From contig JAAFKI010000154.1 of the NCBI GenBank assembly GCA_021399345.1, positions 1 to 64,000 of the forward strand: a DNA stretch of 64,000 bases, written 5' to 3'. This DNA is from Candidatus Heimdallarchaeota archaeon (GTDB taxonomy: Archaea; Asgardarchaeota; Heimdallarchaeia; Heimdallarchaeales; Heimdallarchaeaceae). Both the position numbers and the translations under genes were made by a program. Below are positions 10,470 through 22,503 of this stretch, one piece after another. Numbering within the stretch: the first letter of the stretch is position 1; every line of letters begins with the position of its first letter. The notes under the pieces are model-generated. The model did not search any database. It saw only the letters and a program-made list of their open reading frames with translations, and was not told the DNA's origin.

Positions 10470-12281
10470 TCAGTCATCGTACGGAGATTTAAGTAAAGAT
10501 TTTTGAGCTAATGATAAAATCTGGTTTACAATCTCTTCGTTTACTGATAATAGTTTCTTTAAATCTTCAACTTCTGCTTTAGCAATTTTTTCAATAGTAC
10601 CATACTCCAACATTAGTTTTTGCACCTTAGTTTTACCTATACCTTTTATTTTTTCAAAAATGGAATCTTGAATACTTCTTAATCTTAGGATTTTATGATA
10701 GTTTATAGCAAATCTGTGAGCTTCATCTCTGACATTCTGAACCAGTTTCAAAACTGGCGAATTTCGTTTAAATTCAATTGATTCATCTGACCACTCAACA
10801 AAAATTTCTTCATTTTTCTTGGCAATACTAACAATAGGAACGGATATTTTCAGTTTCTTTAGCACTTTTAATGCAATGTTTAACTGTCCTTTTCCACCAT
10901 CAATTATTAGAAGATCAGGTTTAGGGTCTGATTTCAATGTTTCAGAACTATATCTTCGACCAATTACTTCCTCCATCATTGCATAATCATTTGGTTCTGT
11001 ATACGTTTTTCTAATTCTAAACCGTCTATACAATTTCTTCTGAGGAACACCATTTTCAAAAACCACACAAGACCCTACAGAATGCTCTCCTTTAAGTGTA
11101 GAAATATCAAAACCATGTATTATAATTGGTATCTTTGTTAATTGAAGATCATTTTTCATTTCGTCTAATATCTTCTCGAAGTCCTTTTGATATTGGATAT
11201 CTCTTTTGAATTTTTGTAACTCGTTTCGAGCGTTTTTTTCTGCAATTTCAATTAATTGTTTCGCAATGGTTGTTTTGAATGTTCTAATGTTGAAATCCTT
11301 TGTTTCGAGAAAACGTTCGGTGAATGCTAGACCCACTAGAATACTGTATTTGGGTTTTTCTTCACCATAGATGAAGGTAATAACTTCTCCGGTGGTTCTA
11401 AGAGGATGGCCTTCCTCTTTTGAATAAAGGTAGTTAGTGATATTGTGTATACGATGATTTCGCATCTCCAATTTACTTAATGCTATGTCGCCTTCATATT
11501 CTTTAAACGCCAATACATCAATATTCTTTTGCTTAGAGTGCAAATCATCCTGAATATTCAAAATAGTTCGAACAGCGTGAGTTAGATCACGTAAATTAGC
11601 AGCTTTCTCAAAATTAGATCCCTGAGAGGCTAACCACATTTCTTCCTCAATGCTATCTAGTAAATCAGCTACATTTCCTTTCAGAAAGGATATAACATTT
11701 TTCACGATTTTTCCATATTCCTCGGGAGATATGTTGTTCTTACATGGTGATAAACACCTTCCCAACCTTTCTCTCATACATCTCGCAGATGAACCTTTTT
11801 TAGCTAAACGTTCCATTGTTTTTCCACAATTACATATAGGAAATAATCTTGCAACTAATTTAGCAGTTTGTTTTACCATCGTATCTTTGGGAAAAGGCCC
11901 AAAGTAAACACTCTTGCTGACTCGTTGGTCTGTTTCTCTTGCAAACAAAAGCTGAGGATATTCCTCTTCCATGGTTATTCTGATTAGCAAATGCGATTTA
12001 TCGTCTTTCAGCATACTGTTCAGTTTCGGAGACAGTTGTTTAACCAATTTTTTCTCCAAAATCAAAGCTTCAGATTCATTTCTAGTTATAATCCAATCTA
12101 CACGATGTGCTAGTTCCTGTAATTTATCTTCTTTAAGATTAATAGTTGTTTGAAAATGTTGCTTTACTCGATTCCTGAGATTCTTAGCTTTGCCGACATA
12201 AATTACCTTCTCTTCTTTATCTTTTATCAGATAAACGCCTGGTTCAGTAGGGATTTCTTCAAGATCGGAAAAAAGACTCAT
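10470..12281 (-). CDS. uvrC: Excinuclease ABC subunit C
   Basis: GIY-YIG (PGVY...YVGKAKNL), FDIS, IDGGKGQL, RDEAHRFA, HhH. Confidence 0.97.
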   Translation of the reverse strand: MSLFSDLEEIPTEPGVYLIKDKEEKVIYVGKAKNLRNRVKQHFQTTINLKEDKLQELAHRVDWIITRNESEALILEKKLVKQLSPKLNSMLKDDKSHLLIRITMEEEYPQLLFARETDQRVSKSVYFGPFPKDTMVKQTAKLVARLFPICNCGKTMERLAKKGSSARCMRERLGRCLSPCKNNISPEEYGKIVKNVISFLKGNVADLLDSIEEEMWLASQGSNFEKAANLRDLTHAVRTILNIQDDLHSKQKNIDVLAFKEYEGDIALSKLEMRNHRIHNITNYLYSKEEGHPLRTTGEVITFIYGEEKPKYSILVGLAFTERFLETKDFNIRTFKTTIAKQLIEIAEKNARNELQKFKRDIQYQKDFEKILDEMKNDLQLTKIPIIIHGFDISTLKGEHSVGSCVVFENGVPQKKLYRRFRIRKTYTEPNDYAMMEEVIGRRYSSETLKSDPKPDLLIIDGGKGQLNIALKVLKKLKISVPIVSIAKKNEEIFVEWSDESIEFKRNSPVLKLVQNVRDEAHRFAINYHKILRLRSIQDSIFEKIKGIGKTKVQKLMLEYGTIEKIAKAEVEDLKKLLSVNEEIVNQILSLAQKSLLKSPYDD

Positions 12282-14254
12282 CTAGTTTCCACCATTTTCT
12301 CAAGTTCTTTAATTTTATCACGATAAAGTGCAGCTTTTTCAAAATCTAAAGCTCCAGCAGCTTCAGCCATTTTTTCCTTCAAATCATCAATTACATAAAG
12401 AATATCTTGACTAGTCAAATCATCAGGAACTTCTATTTTCTCTTCCTCTTTAGGTTCAATTTGCATCAATGTTTCAACAATGGATCTTATTTCTTTACGA
12501 ATAGTTGTAGGTTTGATACCATGTTTTTCATTATATTCTTGTTGAATTCTTCTTCTTCTATTATTCTCTGTTATAGCTTCTTTCATAGAACCTGTAAGAT
12601 TATCGGCATACAAAATAACGCTACCATGAACGTTTCTGCTAGCTCGACCCATAAGTTGAATTAGCGAACCTTTAGAACGCAAAAATCCTTCTTTATCTGC
12701 ATCAAGTATTGCAATAAGAGCTACTTCAGGAAGATCCAATCCTTCTCTTAGAAGGTTAATTCCAACTACCACATCATATTTGCCTAATCTAAGTTCTCTT
12801 AATATCTCAATTCGGTCCAAAGTGTCTACCTCATGATGTAAATAAACTGACTTAATATTCATTTCCAGAAGATAATCAGATAGCATCTCTGCACTCTTTT
12901 TAGTGATAGTTGTAACCAAGACTCTTTCTCCCTTACTTACTCTTTGGTTTATCTCGCTTACAAGATCAGTTATTTGTCCATCAGTTCCTCTTACATCTAT
13001 CTTTGGATCTAAAAGACCAGTTGGACGAATGATTTGTTCTACAATTTGCTCAGATATATCATATTCATAATTTCGAGGAGTGGCACTTGTGAAAATAACG
13101 TTGTGCATATATTTCTCCGTTTCTTCGAATCTGAAAGGACGATTATCAAATGCAGAAGGAAGTCTGAAACCATGTTCAATTAGATTCTTCTTTCTTGAGT
13201 AATCTCCACCATACATTCCACGAAGTTGAGGGATAGTTAAATGTGATTCATCAATGATAAACAAGAAATCTTCGGGGAAGTGGTCAAGCAAAGCAAAGGG
13301 TTTTTCACCAGGTTTTCTTCTATCAAAATGACGAGAGTAGTTTTCTATTCCAGAGCAGCCACCTGTTTCTCTTAATAATTCCAAATCATATAGTGTCTTT
13401 TGCCTCAATCGATGTCTTTCCACTACCTTGTTATCCTTTTCAAATTCAGCTAAACGCATATCTAGTTCTATCTTTATATCTTCAAGAGCTGATTCAAAGA
13501 AAGCATCATTTGCAAGATATTGGGTTCCTGGATAAATAGACATTGCTTCATATTCTTTCATCATTTCTCCTGTAACTGAATGTCGAGAAGTTAAACGTTC
13601 TATCTCGTCTCCAAAGAACTCAATACGATAAACGCAATCACTATATAATGGAAAAATATCAATGGAATCACCTCTAACTCTGAAGGTTTTACGATCCAGA
13701 TTCACATCGTTCCTTTCGTATTGGTTTTTGACTAACTCTAACATTAAATCCTGCCTATCTAAAGAATCACCTACTTTCAAAGCTATTCTTCTAGAACGAT
13801 ATACATCAGGAGGACCAGTACCATAAATACAAGAGACAGTTGCACAAACAATTACATCGTCACGAGTAGCTAAAGCTTCAAGAGCTGTATGACGTAAACG
13901 CTCAATTTCTCGATTTATGTCAACATCCTTCTCAATGTAAAGATCTTTAGAAGGAAGATAGGCTTCTGGCTGATAGTAATCATAAAAACTGACATAATAG
14001 CACACTGCTGCAGAAGGAAACAAGGTTTTAAATTCACCAAAAAGCTGTGCAACAAGAGTTTTATTAGGACCCATAATCAAAGTAGGTTTCTTGATTTCAT
14101 CAATAACAGAAGCCATGGTAAAAGTTTTTCCAGAGCCAGTAACACCTAGAAGTGTTTGATGTTTATGCCCTTTGTTTATTCCTTCAATCAATTGAGCTAT
14201 TGCTTTAGGTTGATCTCCCTTTGGAGTAAAAGGCGTTTCTAAATCTAATGGCAT
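12278..14254 (-). CDS. uvrB: Excinuclease ABC subunit B
   Basis: GVTGSGKT, YYQPEAY, DESH, GINLLREGLD, C-terminal UVR domain. Confidence 0.98.
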   Translation of the reverse strand: MPLDLETPFTPKGDQPKAIAQLIEGINKGHKHQTLLGVTGSGKTFTMASVIDEIKKPTLIMGPNKTLVAQLFGEFKTLFPSAAVCYYVSFYDYYQPEAYLPSKDLYIEKDVDINREIERLRHTALEALATRDDVIVCATVSCIYGTGPPDVYRSRRIALKVGDSLDRQDLMLELVKNQYERNDVNLDRKTFRVRGDSIDIFPLYSDCVYRIEFFGDEIERLTSRHSVTGEMMKEYEAMSIYPGTQYLANDAFFESALEDIKIELDMRLAEFEKDNKVVERHRLRQKTLYDLELLRETGGCSGIENYSRHFDRRKPGEKPFALLDHFPEDFLFIIDESHLTIPQLRGMYGGDYSRKKNLIEHGFRLPSAFDNRPFRFEETEKYMHNVIFTSATPRNYEYDISEQIVEQIIRPTGLLDPKIDVRGTDGQITDLVSEINQRVSKGERVLVTTITKKSAEMLSDYLLEMNIKSVYLHHEVDTLDRIEILRELRLGKYDVVVGINLLREGLDLPEVALIAILDADKEGFLRSKGSLIQLMGRASRNVHGSVILYADNLTGSMKEAITENNRRRRIQQEYNEKHGIKPTTIRKEIRSIVETLMQIEPKEEEKIEVPDDLTSQDILYVIDDLKEKMAEAAGALDFEKAALYRDKIKELEKMVETR

Positions 14255-15021: not shown

Positions 15022-15795
15022 TCAGTTGTTTTCTTCCTGCAGGGGAAAGTAAACAGGGAATATAAGACGCGCAAAATTTTGGTATATTTCAACACTATAA
15101 TCCTTCTGTTCGATTAAGCCTTCCAGTTTTACAATTTCAGATTCAGTATAACCTTTCATATCTGGAAATTCACTTTGATTACCATAATCCATAACTTTGC
15201 AAATTATTTCACCGACTTGCTCTAATTCTAGATATGATTCAATCAGGATATGGATATGAGGAGTTAGTTTTTGTGATTGCTCTTCCTCTTTAACTGAATC
15301 AGCTATTCTTATTACAGAAAGGATTGCAGCTCTTCTTGTAATATAGTCCTTTGCATAAACTACATTTTTCAATGGATAAAGAACGTCTGCATCATCTAAG
15401 TAACCTATTGCCCTAATAGCTGCATACTGAAGATCATAATCACTTTCTTCTAGTATTTTTACTAAATAAGGTTTGGACGCATAATCCTTTAAATGACCTA
15501 AAACTTCCAAAGTAGATAGTTTAATAGCCAACGAACTTCGTTCTATAAGATCATGAAGATAGCTTAAGATTTTTTCTTTAAGCTCTGGAAATTCTGAAGC
15601 ATATTCAACTATGGTTGAAGCTGCAGCATTTCTTACATTCCAGTCAGAATCTTCTATTAGTGGATAAATTTTGTTGATACTCTTTGCTTTACCATTCTTC
15701 TGTAAGAATAAAGCAAAACTAGCTCGATCTAGGGGATCGTCGCTTTTTTGTTTTCTACCTATGAATAATCCTCTAAAGAAATCTACTAAACTCAT
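15022..15795 (-). CDS. HEAT-repeat protein
   Basis: Repeats DSDWNVRNAAA, ESDYDLQYAAIRAIG, KDYITRRAAI. Confidence 0.85.
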   Translation of the reverse strand: MSLVDFFRGLFIGRKQKSDDPLDRASFALFLQKNGKAKSINKIYPLIEDSDWNVRNAAASTIVEYASEFPELKEKILSYLHDLIERSSLAIKLSTLEVLGHLKDYASKPYLVKILEESDYDLQYAAIRAIGYLDDADVLYPLKNVVYAKDYITRRAAILSVIRIADSVKEEEQSQKLTPHIHILIESYLELEQVGEIICKVMDYGNQSEFPDMKGYTESEIVKLEGLIEQKDYSVEIYQNFARLIFPVYFPLQEENN

Positions 15796-17366
15796 AATTC
15801 AAACAACCCCTCTTTAATGAGATAGCTTATAGCACCTCTTTGTGGTTGAGTTAGTTTTCTAAGAAATGTATAATCTATTTTTCTAACTTCAAACCTTTCT
15901 TCCTTTTCCTCATCTAAATCAAACTTGTAAGCGTCCTTCCTTTTTGTAACTTGAACAGCTCTTGTAACTACAGGAAGGTTATATGGCGACAAAGATTTGT
16001 ACTTTGCTTTATGAACTGCAAATAAGGTTGCAACATGAATTCCCCCTATTTTCTTGAAAACGATAATATCTGCAAAAGCTGGGAGAATTGTTTTAAAATC
16101 ATCTCTATACAATGCCATATGATTATGTAAAATGACTAACTGATCAATTCCTACACCGTACTCGTTAGCTTCAAACACATATACCTTCTTATCATCCACT
16201 TTTACATATCCTTTTGAGGAAATTCTAGAATTATCATCAAGTAGTTGCCCAAAGGTGGAATATTTTCTTCTAAACACCTTACTTACGTATTCTTCAATTT
16301 GTCTCCAGCCATATGCATAAACAGACCATATATCTGTCCATCTACTTCTGGAAGAGTGCCAATGTTCAACCACAAACTCAGAATGAGCGTTTTTGTTAAC
16401 AGCTTGTAAATCCTTAATATCATTCCATGAAAACTCTTCAAGGAATTCTAAATCAGACTTAAATGAGAAAAGCTTCTGAAATACTGTTTTCTCATCAGAG
16501 TACTTCGCAACAAGTTTATTCATCGCAGCAAGACTAAATTTACCTATAGGGGGTGCAAGGAAAGCTTTTAATTCTTTTGGATACATAATTGATTTATCGT
16601 CGTGTCTTTTTGGAAGCTTATACTCGTCCTTCTCCAGTAAATAATCAATTGCTTTTTTCTGAATGTAATGTGCAAAACCCTCACCTATAAGTTCATGGAG
16701 ATTCTTCTTTCTTACAACCTTAGCCCTTTCATTTATCAGATTAATTGCTTCTATTGAAAAATTATTGAAAAGAGTATATTTCCTAGCATCTTCTGGAGGA
16801 GTATAGAAATCTTCTACTCCTGCTTCTGTAAATAGTCGAATTACGCCTATCAAATCTTGGAAGTATTGCCAAGCCCAAACATGTTTATTTTGTGAAGTTT
16901 GGTTCAATTGAAATACATTGTTTGTCATTAGTTCTTTAAGAACTAAGTCTAATTGGTATAATTGAGCTAAAATTCTTGGTGAATTAGACTCAGTTTTTTC
17001 ATTCAAATAAGCATGAGCAAATGCATGTATAAGCATAACTCTTAGAGTTAATTCTTGTTCCTTAGTAAGTTCTTCTGGAGGAACAGAAAGATAAACAAGA
17101 GTTGGTAAAGAGTTATAGACAGTCTCCTTTCCAGTTGGAAGGAAATCGCTAATCCTAGCTGACCGAAGGTTTGTAATTTGTTCAGAAGTGAGTATAGCTT
17201 GTGGAGTCCCTGTTACCTCTACAACTCTATTAACAGAGATATGCATCTCAGGATTAATGAAAATTAATATTCTATAATTCTCAGGTGTTTCTCCAACTAG
17301 AGTTTTAAAGTCCTCCCTAGCACTGTTGTAAACTTCGATTACGTCACTAAGTTCCTCTTTAAGCAT
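15792..17366 (-). CDS. Hypothetical protein with a degenerate zincin-like motif
   Basis: MLIHAFAHAY (HExxH-like, E to A) and a downstream EGFA; ATG at 17366 overlaps the vWA stop (ORF track starts 17396). Confidence 0.6.
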   Translation of the reverse strand: MLKEELSDVIEVYNSAREDFKTLVGETPENYRILIFINPEMHISVNRVVEVTGTPQAILTSEQITNLRSARISDFLPTGKETVYNSLPTLVYLSVPPEELTKEQELTLRVMLIHAFAHAYLNEKTESNSPRILAQLYQLDLVLKELMTNNVFQLNQTSQNKHVWAWQYFQDLIGVIRLFTEAGVEDFYTPPEDARKYTLFNNFSIEAINLINERAKVVRKKNLHELIGEGFAHYIQKKAIDYLLEKDEYKLPKRHDDKSIMYPKELKAFLAPPIGKFSLAAMNKLVAKYSDEKTVFQKLFSFKSDLEFLEEFSWNDIKDLQAVNKNAHSEFVVEHWHSSRSRWTDIWSVYAYGWRQIEEYVSKVFRRKYSTFGQLLDDNSRISSKGYVKVDDKKVYVFEANEYGVGIDQLVILHNHMALYRDDFKTILPAFADIIVFKKIGGIHVATLFAVHKAKYKSLSPYNLPVVTRAVQVTKRKDAYKFDLDEEKEERFEVRKIDYTFLRKLTQPQRGAISYLIKEGLFEL

Positions 17367-18744
17367 GAAGTATACTCTCCCGTAGTATTTGCTCACCCAA
17401 ATTCTTTATTTGAGCAGGATCTATTAAGATGGGTTTGGTAATCCCTTTGAGCATTCTTTTTGTATGGATAAAAATCTCTTTGTTCCTTAGAGCTTCAGTT
17501 CCCATTAAAAAGTAAGAAATATTCCAATTCCTGGAACGATCAGCCTTTAAAGAGCTGAATATTGCGTTCAATTGTTGCAAACATTCTCTTGTATCTGCAT
17601 TTGTTTTTGTTTCAACTTCATCGAAGTATTTCTTAAGTTCTTTACTCTTTTTGAAACTAAAAGGATAGACAGGAACGTTAGGCATACCATCTGTTACTAT
17701 AGTTAATTGAACATCAATGTCTTTGTCTGTATGCTGTTTCTTTGCATGTTCAATAGCTTTCAGGATGCTCTGAACCATGTGTGTCTTTCCTCGCGCTTCA
17801 GCAGTGAGAAGAAGTTGTTCCATTTTCTTATCATCATCAACCACAAAGGGATTCTTAATTATAGGAACAACTGCTAGCTTAAACATATCAAATCGCTTTC
17901 TTTTTCGTCTATTAATCATTTTGAAATAATAATAGAGACTAAGACTTGTTAAAAGAGCTCCATCCAATCTAGACATTTTTCCTTCAAACACATTTTTTTT
18001 CATGGATTGACTCATATCAACTATCAGATAAACTAAGGAACGACGATCCTTCTTTATCCTCATAATATCTTCTTGTTTGACTTCTGTTGGAGGAATAGTT
18101 TGAGAACTAAGAACAGCACTCTTGTAGGTCTCTTTCAAACGAATTGTACCATGTAATCTTTTTTGAACTTCATCAATAGGTGCTACAGAAATCTGCTTCA
18201 TTAGATATCTACCTAAAATCTTTCCAAGAAGATCCATAACACTTTCCCGAGAAATTCTTTTCTTCCTACCAAATGCGTCAGTTATTTCTATATCCACAAT
18301 TTCTGTTAATTGACTTAATTTCTCTGCTAATTGTTGAAGATCTACAGTTCCTTCTTGTTTAAGTTCTTTTAAAAGATCTTGAATATATTTGAGAATATCC
18401 TCAACAGTCTGTAACTCGTTTCTGTTAACTCTCTCCAGGACATCAGGTAAAATTCGTTCTCCAATGAACCGAAGGAGTTTCATTTCATTAACTAAACGTT
18501 CTTCTTCTTCAGCTATTAGAAAAGTGTTCATGATTTTCTGAACAATATTGTCTACGGCAACAGCATTTTTCGCTGCAATAGATAAGACTGCACCTTCACG
18601 AGAACTTCTTCCAAGATGCGGATTCCTCCATAAGCGTAGCACTTGTGCTGCATCCTCGAATTCTAATACAAATTCTTGATTAGAATAATGCTGCAAGGGA
18701 TCAACAAATTCTGCTTCTGTTACGAAATATATACGATGGGGCAT
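17359..18744 (-). CDS. vWA-domain protein
   Basis: MIDAS DMSQS, GKT, VTDGMPN. Confidence 0.85.
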   Translation of the reverse strand: MPHRIYFVTEAEFVDPLQHYSNQEFVLEFEDAAQVLRLWRNPHLGRSSREGAVLSIAAKNAVAVDNIVQKIMNTFLIAEEEERLVNEMKLLRFIGERILPDVLERVNRNELQTVEDILKYIQDLLKELKQEGTVDLQQLAEKLSQLTEIVDIEITDAFGRKKRISRESVMDLLGKILGRYLMKQISVAPIDEVQKRLHGTIRLKETYKSAVLSSQTIPPTEVKQEDIMRIKKDRRSLVYLIVDMSQSMKKNVFEGKMSRLDGALLTSLSLYYYFKMINRRKRKRFDMFKLAVVPIIKNPFVVDDDKKMEQLLLTAEARGKTHMVQSILKAIEHAKKQHTDKDIDVQLTIVTDGMPNVPVYPFSFKKSKELKKYFDEVETKTNADTRECLQQLNAIFSSLKADRSRNWNISYFLMGTEALRNKEIFIHTKRMLKGITKPILIDPAQIKNLGEQILRESILHA

Positions 18745-20349: not shown

Positions 20350-20952
20350 TTATATATTTTGATTATTTTCTTCTTCTGTAGCAAATTGCACTTGCACAGG
20401 TTTGATTTTTTCTAATAGTTTTTCTTTTTCTTCCCAAGACTTAATGTGTCCAATATGGATTACTCTCTTCAACCATTTTAGAGCTTCAAGTTGAGAAGAG
20501 ATATCGGGTATGTCAAAAAGATTCCATAGTCTATCAGTAAGACGAATGAGAGAGAGATTCTCAATTAACTCTCCACGAGACAAAGCACCTTGGAGATTTG
20601 AGTTATATGCACAGATCGCAATTGGAAGATTTTTTGTTTCAGAATCCCAAGCTATCTTTTCCCAGAAATAGTTTCTTTCATGTTTTATCATTTCTTCTTT
20701 GGTTGCATCAATAAGATATAACAACCCTTCAAATGGAACAAATTGTTTATGTTTGAATTTGAACCCTAAAGAATATGGTAATTCAGTTAGAGAACTATCT
20801 ATTATGAATTCTGAGAGAGATGTATTAGACCTCATCAGTAGAGTTCTGTTTCTAGTTGCAGGAGTATTATCTCCCAAAACTAGTATAGATACTTCTGGGG
20901 AACCTAGCTTTCTTCTAAGAGAACTTTTCAGATTCTGAATAAAGTTAGTCAT
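20350..20952 (-). CDS. Arf-family-like protein with degenerate GTP-binding motifs
   Basis: N-terminal amphipathic helix, then ILVLG, GLLYLIDA, LPIAICA, LQGALS..EL...L.L..L.DR.W, EALKWL, matching the Arf C-terminal half by eye. Confidence 0.7.
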   Translation of the reverse strand: MTNFIQNLKSSLRRKLGSPEVSILVLGDNTPATRNRTLLMRSNTSLSEFIIDSSLTELPYSLGFKFKHKQFVPFEGLLYLIDATKEEMIKHERNYFWEKIAWDSETKNLPIAICAYNSNLQGALSRGELIENLSLIRLTDRLWNLFDIPDISSQLEALKWLKRVIHIGHIKSWEEKEKLLEKIKPVQVQFATEEENNQNI

Positions 20953-21058
20953 TGGGTTTCGTTAAAAAGCAACCTATGTGCATCTTTATCAATTTTTTGA
21001 ATAAGAAGTTTTTAGAATAAGAGTAAAAGTTTAGAACTTCAATAAAAATGAAATAGTA

Positions 21059-21553
21059 ATGAGTCAAAAAATTCTAAGCATAGTTGTCGCTGGTATTGAG
21101 TATAATAACAAGTGGTTGTTTATCAAACGTGAAAGAGGAGATTATCAAAAGAAATGGGCTTTAGTTGGGGGGAAAATGCATTTTGATGAAACAATAAAAG
21201 AATCAATTTTAAGAGAAATAAAAGAAGAAACGGGTTTAGAAGTTGAGTGGGTTGGAATCAAATCTATCCTAAATGAAAAACTCAAAGAGAAAAATTCTGG
21301 AGAAACAACACAACATTTCATTATTATTTTATGTTTAACAAAAGCAAATAGTGACGAGGTCAAAGAAACAGAAGAAGGAGAATTATGCTGGTTCACTAAA
21401 CAAAAAATCAGAAATAATGAAAATGAGATCATTCCCTCTGATTATCATATGATGACAAATTTGATTATGAAAGAATCATTAAACCAGATTGTTGAAGTGG
21501 AACTATTAGAAAAAGAAGATGAATTATCTCTTGGTTTATTTGAAGAATATTAA
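21059..21553 (+). CDS. NUDIX hydrolase
   Basis: GGKMHFDETIKESILREIKEETGL Nudix box. Confidence 0.93.
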   Translation: MSQKILSIVVAGIEYNNKWLFIKRERGDYQKKWALVGGKMHFDETIKESILREIKEETGLEVEWVGIKSILNEKLKEKNSGETTQHFIIILCLTKANSDEVKETEEGELCWFTKQKIRNNENEIIPSDYHMMTNLIMKESLNQIVEVELLEKEDELSLGLFEEY

Positions 21554-22503
21554 TTAATTATTTTCTCAAATTCTTCTGTATTTATTTTAGAACCACTAAT
21601 AACAAGAACAACTTCACTCCCTTGGAATTTCTTAATCTTTTGAATAAATGATGCAACAGACAATACCGCAGCACCCTCAACTATCAGTTTGTGTTCTTTG
21701 AAAAGCAACCTTAAAGCGTTTTTAATTTCTTCTTCTGAAACCATAATGTATTCATCTACATATTTTTTGCAATAATCGAAAGTAATAGAATCGGGTTCTA
21801 TCCCTCCAGCAGTTCCATCAGATAATGTGGGTTTTGATTCGTAATCTATTATTCTTCCTGCCTTAATTGATTCATACATTACTGGAGAATTAATTGGTTG
21901 GCACCCAATGATTTCAATTTCCCCAAATTTATTCTTCAAATAGCTTGCAACACCTGAAATCAAACCTCCTCCTCCTATGGGAACTAAAACAAAATCGGGT
22001 TTCCTTAATTGTTTCTCTAATTCTATTCCTATAGTTCCTTGTCCCGCTATGATCTTCAAATTGTTATAGGGAGAGATAAAGTCTATCATGTTTTTCTGAG
22101 CATATTCACGTGCAAATGTTTCAGTTTCAACACAATCATTTCCGTAAAATTCTATCTTAACATTCTGCTCTTCTAATGCCTTAATCTTAGTTTGGGATGC
22201 GTTTTTAGGTAGGAATATAGTTCCTTTCAACCCTAAAATATCGGTTCCATGAGCGAAAGCTGCTCCATGGTTTCCAGATGAAGCGGTTATGAATTTATCC
22301 TTGTTTTTTGTAGTACTAAGGAAAATCAGACTATTCATTGCTCCTCTAATCTTAAAAGATCCAGTAACCTGTTGATTCTCTAATTTGAGATATACTTTGC
22401 AATTTCCCATTTTACTTAGAACTGAAGAATACTCTAAGGAAGTCTCTCTAATATATGGTCTAATTCTCTCTTGAGCTTCTTGAATTTCTCTAAGTATATC
22501 CAT
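21550..22503 (-). CDS. PLP-dependent threonine/serine dehydratase
   Basis: GSFKIRGA, SSGNHG, PIGGGGL. Confidence 0.93.
   Translation of the reverse strand: MDILREIQEAQERIRPYIRETSLEYSSVLSKMGNCKVYLKLENQQVTGSFKIRGAMNSLIFLSTTKNKDKFITASSGNHGAAFAHGTDILGLKGTIFLPKNASQTKIKALEEQNVKIEFYGNDCVETETFAREYAQKNMIDFISPYNNLKIIAGQGTIGIELEKQLRKPDFVLVPIGGGGLISGVASYLKNKFGEIEIIGCQPINSPVMYESIKAGRIIDYESKPTLSDGTAGGIEPDSITFDYCKKYVDEYIMVSEEEIKNALRLLFKEHKLIVEGAAVLSVASFIQKIKKFQGSEVVLVISGSKINTEEFEKIIN

Follow-up and report, generated by a model that had tools for sequence, protein, structure and literature searches.

What is left of an Arf protein when every one of its nucleotide-binding motifs has gone, and why should such a protein be kept in the company of an ATPase? 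The question is raised by an open reading frame (ORF), called ArfL here, in the first 64,000 nucleotides (nt) of contig JAAFKI010000154.1 (positions 1 to 64,000, forward strand; NCBI GenBank assembly GCA_021399345.1) of a Candidatus Heimdallarchaeota archaeon, a stretch of DNA referred to below in its whole length as the window. Arf GTPases are eukaryote-signature proteins, Heimdall-group archaea are central to models of endomembrane origin, and the roles of archaeal Arfs are little understood because informative gene neighbours are rare. An original prediction, made from the letters of the window, had read ArfL as a pseudo-GTPase scaffold of Arf type that heads an operon, has lost its nucleotide-binding motifs and has kept an amphipathic helix. 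The analysis described here finds that ArfL descends from the Arf family, that its motifs were lost in the common ancestor of five archaeal families and that the gene is held by strong purifying selection; it is probably a pseudoGTPase, and it may well serve as a non-catalytic subunit or adaptor of a putative remodelling machine, composed of an AAA+ ATPase and a VWA protein, whose genes directly follow its own.

The descent of ArfL from the Arf family of small GTPases can be regarded as settled, being borne out by Pfam, by family profiles and by the predicted fold. The Pfam Arf model (PF00025) matches the protein with 24.0 bits (cut-off 22.3; E 3e-5) over amino acids (aa) 71-163 only, which correspond to profile positions 79-172, and the strings on which the Arf-like reading had been based are all found in it: MTNFIQNLKSSL at aa 1-12, GLLYLIDA at aa 76-83, the block LQGAL...TDRLW at aa 120-143 and LEALKWL at aa 155-161. 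A phmmer search of ArfL against PDB sequences gave 77 matches, the best of them to the Asgard protein HodArfR1 and all 60 of the 60 listed to Arf or Arl proteins; a profile built from 31 ArfL members reached Arl3 over its full length with a best E of 1.2e-10, again with Arf/Arl proteins in 60 of the 60 matches listed. A template-free AlphaFold2 model, for which the family alignment served as input, is confident (mean predicted local distance difference test score, pLDDT, 85; predicted template-modelling score, pTM, 0.80) and has the fold of a small GTPase of Arf type; any other fold would have told against the original prediction. With this model as query, Foldseek placed the GDP-bound form of HodArfR1 (8oul, chain 8oul_A) at rank 1 with E 6e-9, and VIA-align aligned Arf6 with a Z of 19.2 (root-mean-square deviation 2.0 Å over 140 residues), its top 50 entries being Arf or Arl throughout. 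The Arf homology is already present in the annotation, some NCBI records of ArfL homologues being named ‘ADP-ribosylation factor-like protein’; no published description covers the operon, the pseudoGTPase state or how old that state is. In the 3.3-Mb genome from which the window comes (G000), PF00025 has 40 matches, several of them within longer frames that encode multiple domains (up to 690 aa); the small-GTPase repertoire of this genome is very large, and the Arf model also catches other GTPases in control genomes.

Is anything left of the apparatus by which Arfs hold their nucleotide? A motif check found none of GxxxxGK[ST], DxxG and [NT]KxD in ArfL; two canonical Arf paralogues encoded in the same genome (L001 and L002) have GxxxxGK[ST], DxxGQ and NKxD intact. 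Alignment with these paralogues showed, in addition, that the switch I Thr of G2 and the DxxGQ of G3 are absent and that no SA[KLT]-type motif, as expected for G5, follows strand beta6. Of the P-loop (G1) only a remnant can be recognized, in which G27 is the sole column common to ArfL and the canonical paralogues, and is invariant. Of the four residues that take the place of the NKxD motif of G4, Y116 and N117 are invariant in the family to which the window belongs, and other families have PNTS, PDSN or ANFS there. The original prediction had listed these very changes (GDNTPAT in the P-loop, no DxxGQ, YNSN in place of NKxD and a shortened switch region) as a loss of all nucleotide-binding motifs, and both the paralogues and HodArfR1 confirm it.

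The loss goes beyond single residues. The stretch from alpha1 to beta4 measures about 33 aa in ArfL versus about 57 aa in L001 and L002, and the region between switch I and switch II is some 20-25 residues shorter. In the model, which has five strands and not six, the alpha2/switch II helix is missing together with one strand of the interswitch hairpin, such that a single strand (aa 49-56), followed by an ordered coil of 19 residues, stands in place of the beta2-beta3 hairpin. Strand beta1 (aa 21-28) and helix alpha1 (aa 31-42) are separated by just two non-helical residues. The change in the P-loop is best described as motif loss combined with a shorter modelled loop, given that the alignment alone does not tell shortening from substitution; a ‘four-residue deletion’ at this place was considered and dropped, for MAFFT sets no gap there against the canonical paralogues. 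Because the P-loop Lys and Ser/Thr, the switch I Thr, the DxxGQ motif with the switch II helix, one interswitch strand, NKxD and G5 have all been lost, ArfL cannot run the interswitch toggle of Arf proteins. To judge from sequence and model, it would also be devoid of canonical guanine nucleotide binding, and it is probably a pseudoGTPase of the class I type, that is, a G-domain fold which has lost its motifs and is under selection (for the definition of the class, see PMC12722892, citing Stiegler and Boggon 2020).

When did this happen, and is the product still of use to its hosts? The 44 close homologues of ArfL (51-100% identity) have the motif-less state in common. A search of 1.8 billion representatives returned only 12 clusters at E < 1e-10, of which those inspected were motif-less, canonical Arfs appearing from about E 1e-7 downwards. 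Across whole genomes, the E-values fall into two modes, with ArfL members at or below 1e-38 versus other Arf-family matches at about 1e-10 to 1e-11. ArfL occurs as one copy per genome; with the families of the class denoted f1 to f7, it is present in 27 of 28 genomes of f1, in the single genome of f2 (1/1), in all 11 of f4 (11/11) and in 10 of 11 of f6. One f3 genome has a very divergent copy and two others have none, and no member-level match was obtained in f5, in f7 or, outside the class, in any of 23 further families sampled from the phylum. The divergent f3 gene (L082:1519-1995, minus strand) encodes 158 aa, is free of G motifs and shares a contig with the AAA+ gene of its locus, about 9 kb away. 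The syntenic orthologues of f4 and f6, with 32-40% identity over the C-terminal half, have no G1, G3 or G4, and the motif-less state extends to every ArfL orthologue in five families of this one class (f1, f2, f3, f4 and f6). That the motifs were lost in the common ancestor of these five families we consider settled. Close orthologues retaining G1-G4, in which the original prediction would have seen a sign of recent decay, were not encountered among the syntenic orthologues of the five families. In a quick maximum-likelihood tree with Rab-like paralogues as its root, the ArfL sequences (14 rows) group in a single clade (SH-aLRT, the Shimodaira-Hasegawa-like approximate likelihood-ratio test, 94), which is nested among canonical Arf-like sequences on a long stem (0.79) and a poorly resolved backbone; a single origin of ArfL is consistent with this tree. 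As to selection, pairwise Nei-Gojobori estimates, restricted to unsaturated pairs (synonymous divergence, dS, of 0.05-1), gave a median ratio of nonsynonymous to synonymous divergence (dN/dS) of 0.077 for ArfL (35 pairs) versus 0.071 for the neighbouring AAA+ gene (34 pairs), and ArfL is thus under strong purifying selection. The ORF is indeed intact, as had been claimed, in the window and in about 50 genomes; it begins with an ATG that is separated from the upstream stop by three in-frame codons only.

With what, then, does ArfL work? Behind it lie four co-directional genes, encoding in this order the AAA+ ATPase, the VWA protein, a protein designated U534 and a HEAT-repeat protein, and the spacing of the five genes from 5' to 3' (gaps of 17 and 37 nt, followed by overlaps of 38 and 4 nt), together with the preservation of their order in other genomes, agrees with the earlier claim that ArfL heads an operon. 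Synteny was surveyed in 50 species-level loci around the AAA+ gene, some 47 of which offered enough upstream sequence. In 42 of the 50 (42 of the about 47 informative ones), the gene directly upstream of the AAA+ gene, in the same orientation, is ArfL, and the order AAA-VWA-U534-HEAT is maintained as far as the contigs reach; in seven of the 50, of which at least two end at a contig edge, ArfL is absent from the locus. Candidatus Heimdallarchaeum (CP084166/CP084167) has this cluster as well. The AAA+ gene, searched for in 83 genomes of the class, was found in 29 of 30 genomes of f1, 1 of 1 of f2, 3 of 3 of f3, 12 of 12 of f4 and 9 of 12 of f6, in none of the 22 of f5 or the 2 of f7, and, beyond the class, in none of the 23 families by which the phylum was sampled. 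Its phyletic range is therefore that of ArfL, namely f1, f2, f3, f4 and f6 only. The operon and this shared distribution argue for a joint role of ArfL and the AAA+/VWA module. In f3, a multi-pass membrane protein of about 330 aa is encoded upstream of the AAA+ gene (L073:5366-6361, plus strand; L075:2728-3708, minus strand).

The module itself is recognizable and at the same time peculiar. Among Pfam models, Sigma54_activat matches the AAA+ protein with 23.1 bits (cut-off 20.2), AAA_5 and Mg_chelatase staying under their cut-offs, and its neighbours in the language-model comparison (Atlas) are archaeal Mg_chelatase/AAA_5 clusters (score 0.97). The Walker A motif reads GPTGEAKS in the window and GPTGEAK[ST] in the family, a GxxGxAK[ST] pattern that we take to be MoxR-like. 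The Walker B motif, VVNEIQR, has Asn (Asn225) for Asp, invariantly in all orthologues including a remote clade, and an insert carries a Cys triad (C92, C123 and C126). In one lineage (L038, genus g13), where ArfL is also non-adjacent, the three Cys are jointly replaced by Ser. Sequence databases hold this AAA+ family in Asgard records only, nearly all of them labelled hypothetical; the remote clade (35-43% identity), labelled Hodarchaeota/Promethearchaeota, comprises P0262-P0265 (41-43%), P0268 and P0269. Deeper orthologues of the operon, headed by a canonical GTPase, were looked for among these relatives, and the remote clade was not met in the genomes examined or in the metagenome scan. The VWA protein, matched by VWA_2 in six of seven orthologues, has a complete metal ion-dependent adhesion site (MIDAS; D243-x-S245-x-S247, T321 and D352), invariant in 12 orthologues; its AlphaFold2 model is mostly above pLDDT 80 in the domain at aa 235-457 and poorly predicted in the N-terminal half. 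Foldseek ranked the VWA domain of NorD, from the NorQ-NorD complex, best (E 3e-6), followed by Rpn10, TFIIH p44 and the MIDAS domain of Rea1. A Sec23/24 identity found no support in this ranking, Sec23 (5kyu_B) coming at rank 34 (E 1e-4, template-modelling score 0.17 on the target) behind many generic VWA domains.

U534 has no relatives in Pfam, NCBIfam, PDB or Atlas. Its annotated GTG start produces the 38-nt overlap with the VWA gene, and translation may in fact begin at an ATG further downstream. The conserved C-terminal tail of some 25 residues (LTQPQR..I.YLI) is possibly a helix-turn-helix-like piece, as its pattern suggests, and a zincin was discarded, since the string HAFAH is without the Glu needed for catalysis, is not maintained in either f4 or f2, and there are no Pfam, PDB or Atlas matches. 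The HEAT-repeat protein has NblB/CpcE-like repeats and sub-threshold matches to Adaptin_N. A defence system of the vWA-MoxR conflict type was considered for the cluster and found no support: PADLOC returned no system match and only weak TRIP13 and HEAT hits, and the cluster, present in a single copy, is syntenic and found throughout the lineage.

Where on ArfL could a partner be bound? Two features stand out in the alignment of 31 members. W97 and W102 are present in 31 of the 31 and not in the canonical Arf rows; because alpha3, on which they lie, borders the deleted switch II, the surface around them is a plausible new interface and a candidate site for partner binding. The strongest conservation falls on the block between alpha4 and beta6, in which S134, L135, R137 and D140 are invariant; this block aligns with the matching block of Arf/Arl3 and is inherited from the Arf family. 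A different picture is obtained for the N-terminal helix, which the original prediction had described as kept. In the window it has a hydrophobic moment (muH) of 0.73, reached by 57 of 1000 shuffles, and a charge of +4, and in the rest of the family muH is 0.7-0.98 (usually above >90% of shuffles) and the charge +3 to +5, so that for the window's family the description holds. In f4, however, the N-terminal segment is shorter and weaker in amphipathicity, and in f6 and f2, which have about 10 residues ahead of beta1, the helix is absent. The amphipathic helix is thus a feature of one branch and not of the whole ArfL family. Coordinates of these and the other features are collected in Table 1.

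Table 1. Features of ArfL and its gene cluster, in window coordinates
Feature	Coordinates	Strand	Basis
ArfL, Arf-fold pseudoGTPase gene (probable)	20350..20952	minus	intact ORF, 200 aa
Basic amphipathic N-terminal helix, aa 2-15	20908..20949	minus	AlphaFold2 helix, pLDDT 63-70
G1/P-loop remnant GDNTPAT, aa 27-33	20854..20874	minus	alignment with canonical paralogues
ArfL-specific Trp pair W97, W102, alpha3	20647..20664	minus	31-member alignment
YNSN where G4 NKxD is expected, aa 116-119	20596..20607	minus	hidden Markov model alignment, opposite NKQD of HodArfR1
Strongest conserved block, aa 128-146, alpha4 to beta6	20515..20571	minus	31-sequence alignment
AAA+ ATPase, probably of ChlI/MoxR type, 516 aa	18782..20332	minus	starts 17 nt past ArfL stop
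VWA protein, 461 aa, helical N-terminal half and C-terminal VWA domain	17359..18744	minus	VWA_2, AlphaFold2, Foldseek
U534, about 520-534 aa, start codon uncertain	15792..17396	minus	constant place after VWA gene
HEAT-repeat protein of 257 aa, fifth and final gene	15022..15795	minus	Pfam HEAT_2, E 1.9e-15
AT-rich intergenic region, 106 nt, common to ArfL and the divergent Nudix gene	20953..21058		

How might a G domain stripped of its motifs be of use to an ATPase? In the mechanism that we propose, an offshoot of the Arf family would have retained the G-domain fold, given up canonical guanine nucleotide binding and come to offer the AAA+/VWA machine a fixed binding surface; the invariant Trp pair, which the missing switch II would leave exposed, is a candidate for the contact, and in the window's family the basic amphipathic helix may tether the complex to a membrane. 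We put the probability that ArfL is a non-catalytic subunit or adaptor of such a machine at roughly 60%. The scaffold role of the original prediction, too, would follow from gene linkage. Several points weigh against our reading. The linkage is not without exceptions: in one of the 50 loci ArfL lies 1.8 kb off on the opposite strand, in genus g13 it is found either apart from the cluster or in the reverse orientation, in f2 it is found on another contig than the AAA+ cluster, and f3 has only the very divergent copy 9 kb away, two of its genomes being without any. Given these exceptions in g13, f2 and f3, the AAA+/VWA core can exist without an adjacent ArfL. No proteins in which ArfL is fused to a partner were found, which is weak evidence. 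Membrane tethering cannot be the core function of ArfL, because part of the family does without the N-terminal helix. Finally, the predicted failure to bind nucleotide comes from sequence and model, the role of the five genes as a remodelling machine is itself putative, and the physical association of ArfL with its neighbours is presumed.

It is conceivable, for instance, that ArfL is not a part of the machine but its client or a switch element, which the AAA+/VWA pair would remodel with ATP, perhaps extracting it from or loading it onto a membrane or a partner, so that the lost GTP cycle would pass to an ATPase. Linkage and co-distribution speak for a client as much as for a subunit, MoxR/VWA pairs do act on specific clients (NorQ-NorD, for one, on nitric oxide reductase), and ArfL of the window's family retains the amphipathic helix, the element that is switched in Arfs. 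That helix, however, is missing from f6 and f2, whose operon is in other respects unchanged, and clients of MoxR systems are usually enzymes in need of cofactor insertion; the data at hand would fit subunit and client alike, and we consider a client role unlikely, if the most serious of the alternatives. Distinctly less probable is that ArfL is independent of its neighbours and acts on the many canonical Arf-like GTPases of these genomes, serving as a decoy or partner for the proteins that regulate them, transmit their signal or dimerize with them. The 40 PF00025 matches in the genome, the Arf-inherited nature of the top-conserved block and the position of ArfL off the operon in genus g13 and family f2 would all fit; it is harder to reconcile with such a role that ArfL has lost by deletion the switch regions on which most regulators and effectors of Arfs rely, that ArfL and the AAA+ gene are adjacent in 42 of about 47 loci, and that the range of ArfL equals that of the AAA+ gene, unlike that of canonical Arfs, which are found also in ArfL-less families.

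Might ArfL, on the other hand, still hold a nucleotide or some other phosphate ligand in a non-canonical manner, as a pseudoGTPase of class II or III or by means of a re-purposed pocket? Some orthologues do have GKT- or EKS-like strings directly after beta1, and the first Gly of the P-loop is invariant, but neither Lys nor Ser/Thr is conserved family-wide at this place, every member is devoid of G4 and G5, the motifs by which the guanine base is held, and in the model just two residues link beta1 to alpha1, all of which makes binding of this kind very improbable. Ranked behind it, as an outside chance to which the VWA model gave no support, is a primitive Arf-nucleated membrane adaptor or coat made of all five gene products, in which ArfL, free of nucleotide, would assemble on a membrane with a HEAT solenoid and the VWA protein, the AAA+ ATPase taking the place of a GTP cycle in driving assembly and release; if true, the archaea most closely related to eukaryotes would possess a side-branch or a forerunner of the coats that depend on Arf/Sar1. 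We give practically no credence to a recently inactivated, decaying Arf gene. It is true that the catalytic motifs are all gone, as decay would have it; a dN/dS of about 0.08, a frame intact in about 50 genomes, a motif-less state spread over five families and a confidently modelled, folded protein stand on the other side, and decay was rejected on the strength of dN/dS and of the age of the loss. Since the loss is ancient and selection purifying, ‘pseudo-GTPase rather than decaying gene’, the phrase in which the original prediction may be summed up, stands.

Beyond the cluster, the AT-rich region ahead of ArfL, which it shares with a divergently transcribed Nudix gene, is presumed to hold the promoter of the cluster. 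The Nudix hydrolase gene (21059-21553, plus strand) and a gene for an enzyme dependent on pyridoxal phosphate (PLP; 21550-22503, minus strand) adjoin the upstream side, and both hold the same position in three further genera of the family (L033-L035). Downstream, beyond a gap, lie uvrB (2.6e-293) and uvrC of bacterial-type nucleotide excision repair (10470-14254, minus strand); uvrB is found near the cluster in L033-L035, other genera of the family, as well.

What is the significance of these findings? ArfL would mean that the Arf fold was re-used as a nucleotide-free module already in archaea, whereas the discussion of pseudoGTPases has until now been concerned mainly with eukaryotes; a full-text search combining pseudoGTPase with archaea yielded general reviews only and no paper on an archaeal pseudoGTPase, and a literature search for MoxR/VWA systems in Asgard archaea or Heimdallarchaeia returned nothing relevant. 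ArfL also marks an Asgard-restricted, putative AAA+/VWA machine, of which almost all genomes in five families have a single copy, and the fixed set of four partner genes makes its binding partners directly testable.

Several known systems invite comparison. Like the operon, the Arf/Sar1 coats (Sar1-Sec23/24, and Arf1 with the HEAT solenoids of adaptins and COPI) bring together an Arf fold, a VWA fold and HEAT repeats, the trunk of Sec23/24 being a VWA fold. Unlike in these coats, the VWA protein of the cluster has a full MIDAS and no evident Sec23 accessory domains, with the reservation that its N-terminal half is modelled at low confidence, and ArfL, unlike coat Arfs, is without the switch regions for coat binding. 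A second comparison is offered by the pairs of a MoxR-type AAA+ ATPase with a VWA protein, among them RavA-ViaA, CbbQ-CbbO and BchI-BchD; to our knowledge, none of the MoxR/VWA systems has a partner with a small-GTPase fold. As in NorQ-NorD (PDB 9qh6/9qh8), an AAA+ protein, probably of ChlI/MoxR kind, adjoins a MIDAS-complete VWA protein in the cluster, which differs from the pairs in its three extra conserved genes (ArfL, U534 and HEAT) and in the Walker B Asn and Cys-triad insert of its AAA+ protein.

The nearest relatives in fold and lineage are the Asgard Arf proteins, or AArfs, such as HodArfR1 and GerdArfR1 (PDB 8ouk-8oun), which come, like ArfL, from Heimdallarchaeia. Studies of these proteins (PMC11914678; 10.1101/2024.02.28.582541) describe intact G boxes and GTP-dependent membrane binding, and make no mention of degenerate members or of AAA+/VWA neighbours of Arfs; G boxes are well conserved in the set surveyed in PMC11914678, and the ArfL family is probably outside that set. 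The alpha4-beta6 and alpha5 blocks are common to both groups, and ArfL of the window's family has, like the Asgard Arfs, a predicted N-terminal amphipathic helix without myristoylation. Unlike the Asgard Arfs, ArfL has lost G1-G5, switch II and one interswitch strand, and has an extra C-terminal helix and a fixed operon.

With respect to its probable pseudoGTPase state, ArfL resembles the N-terminal domain of AAGAB, RhoBTB1/2 and the pG domains of p190RhoGAP, in which a G-domain fold that has lost its motifs is used as a protein-protein interaction module. CENP-M is a further pseudoGTPase whose G-domain fold serves as an interaction module. AAGAB is described as an assembly chaperone (PMC12490416). 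Whereas these eukaryotic class I pseudoGTPases are of Rab- or Rho-like origin, ArfL is derived from Arf, archaeal, free-standing, encoded in an operon and predicted to be non-binding.

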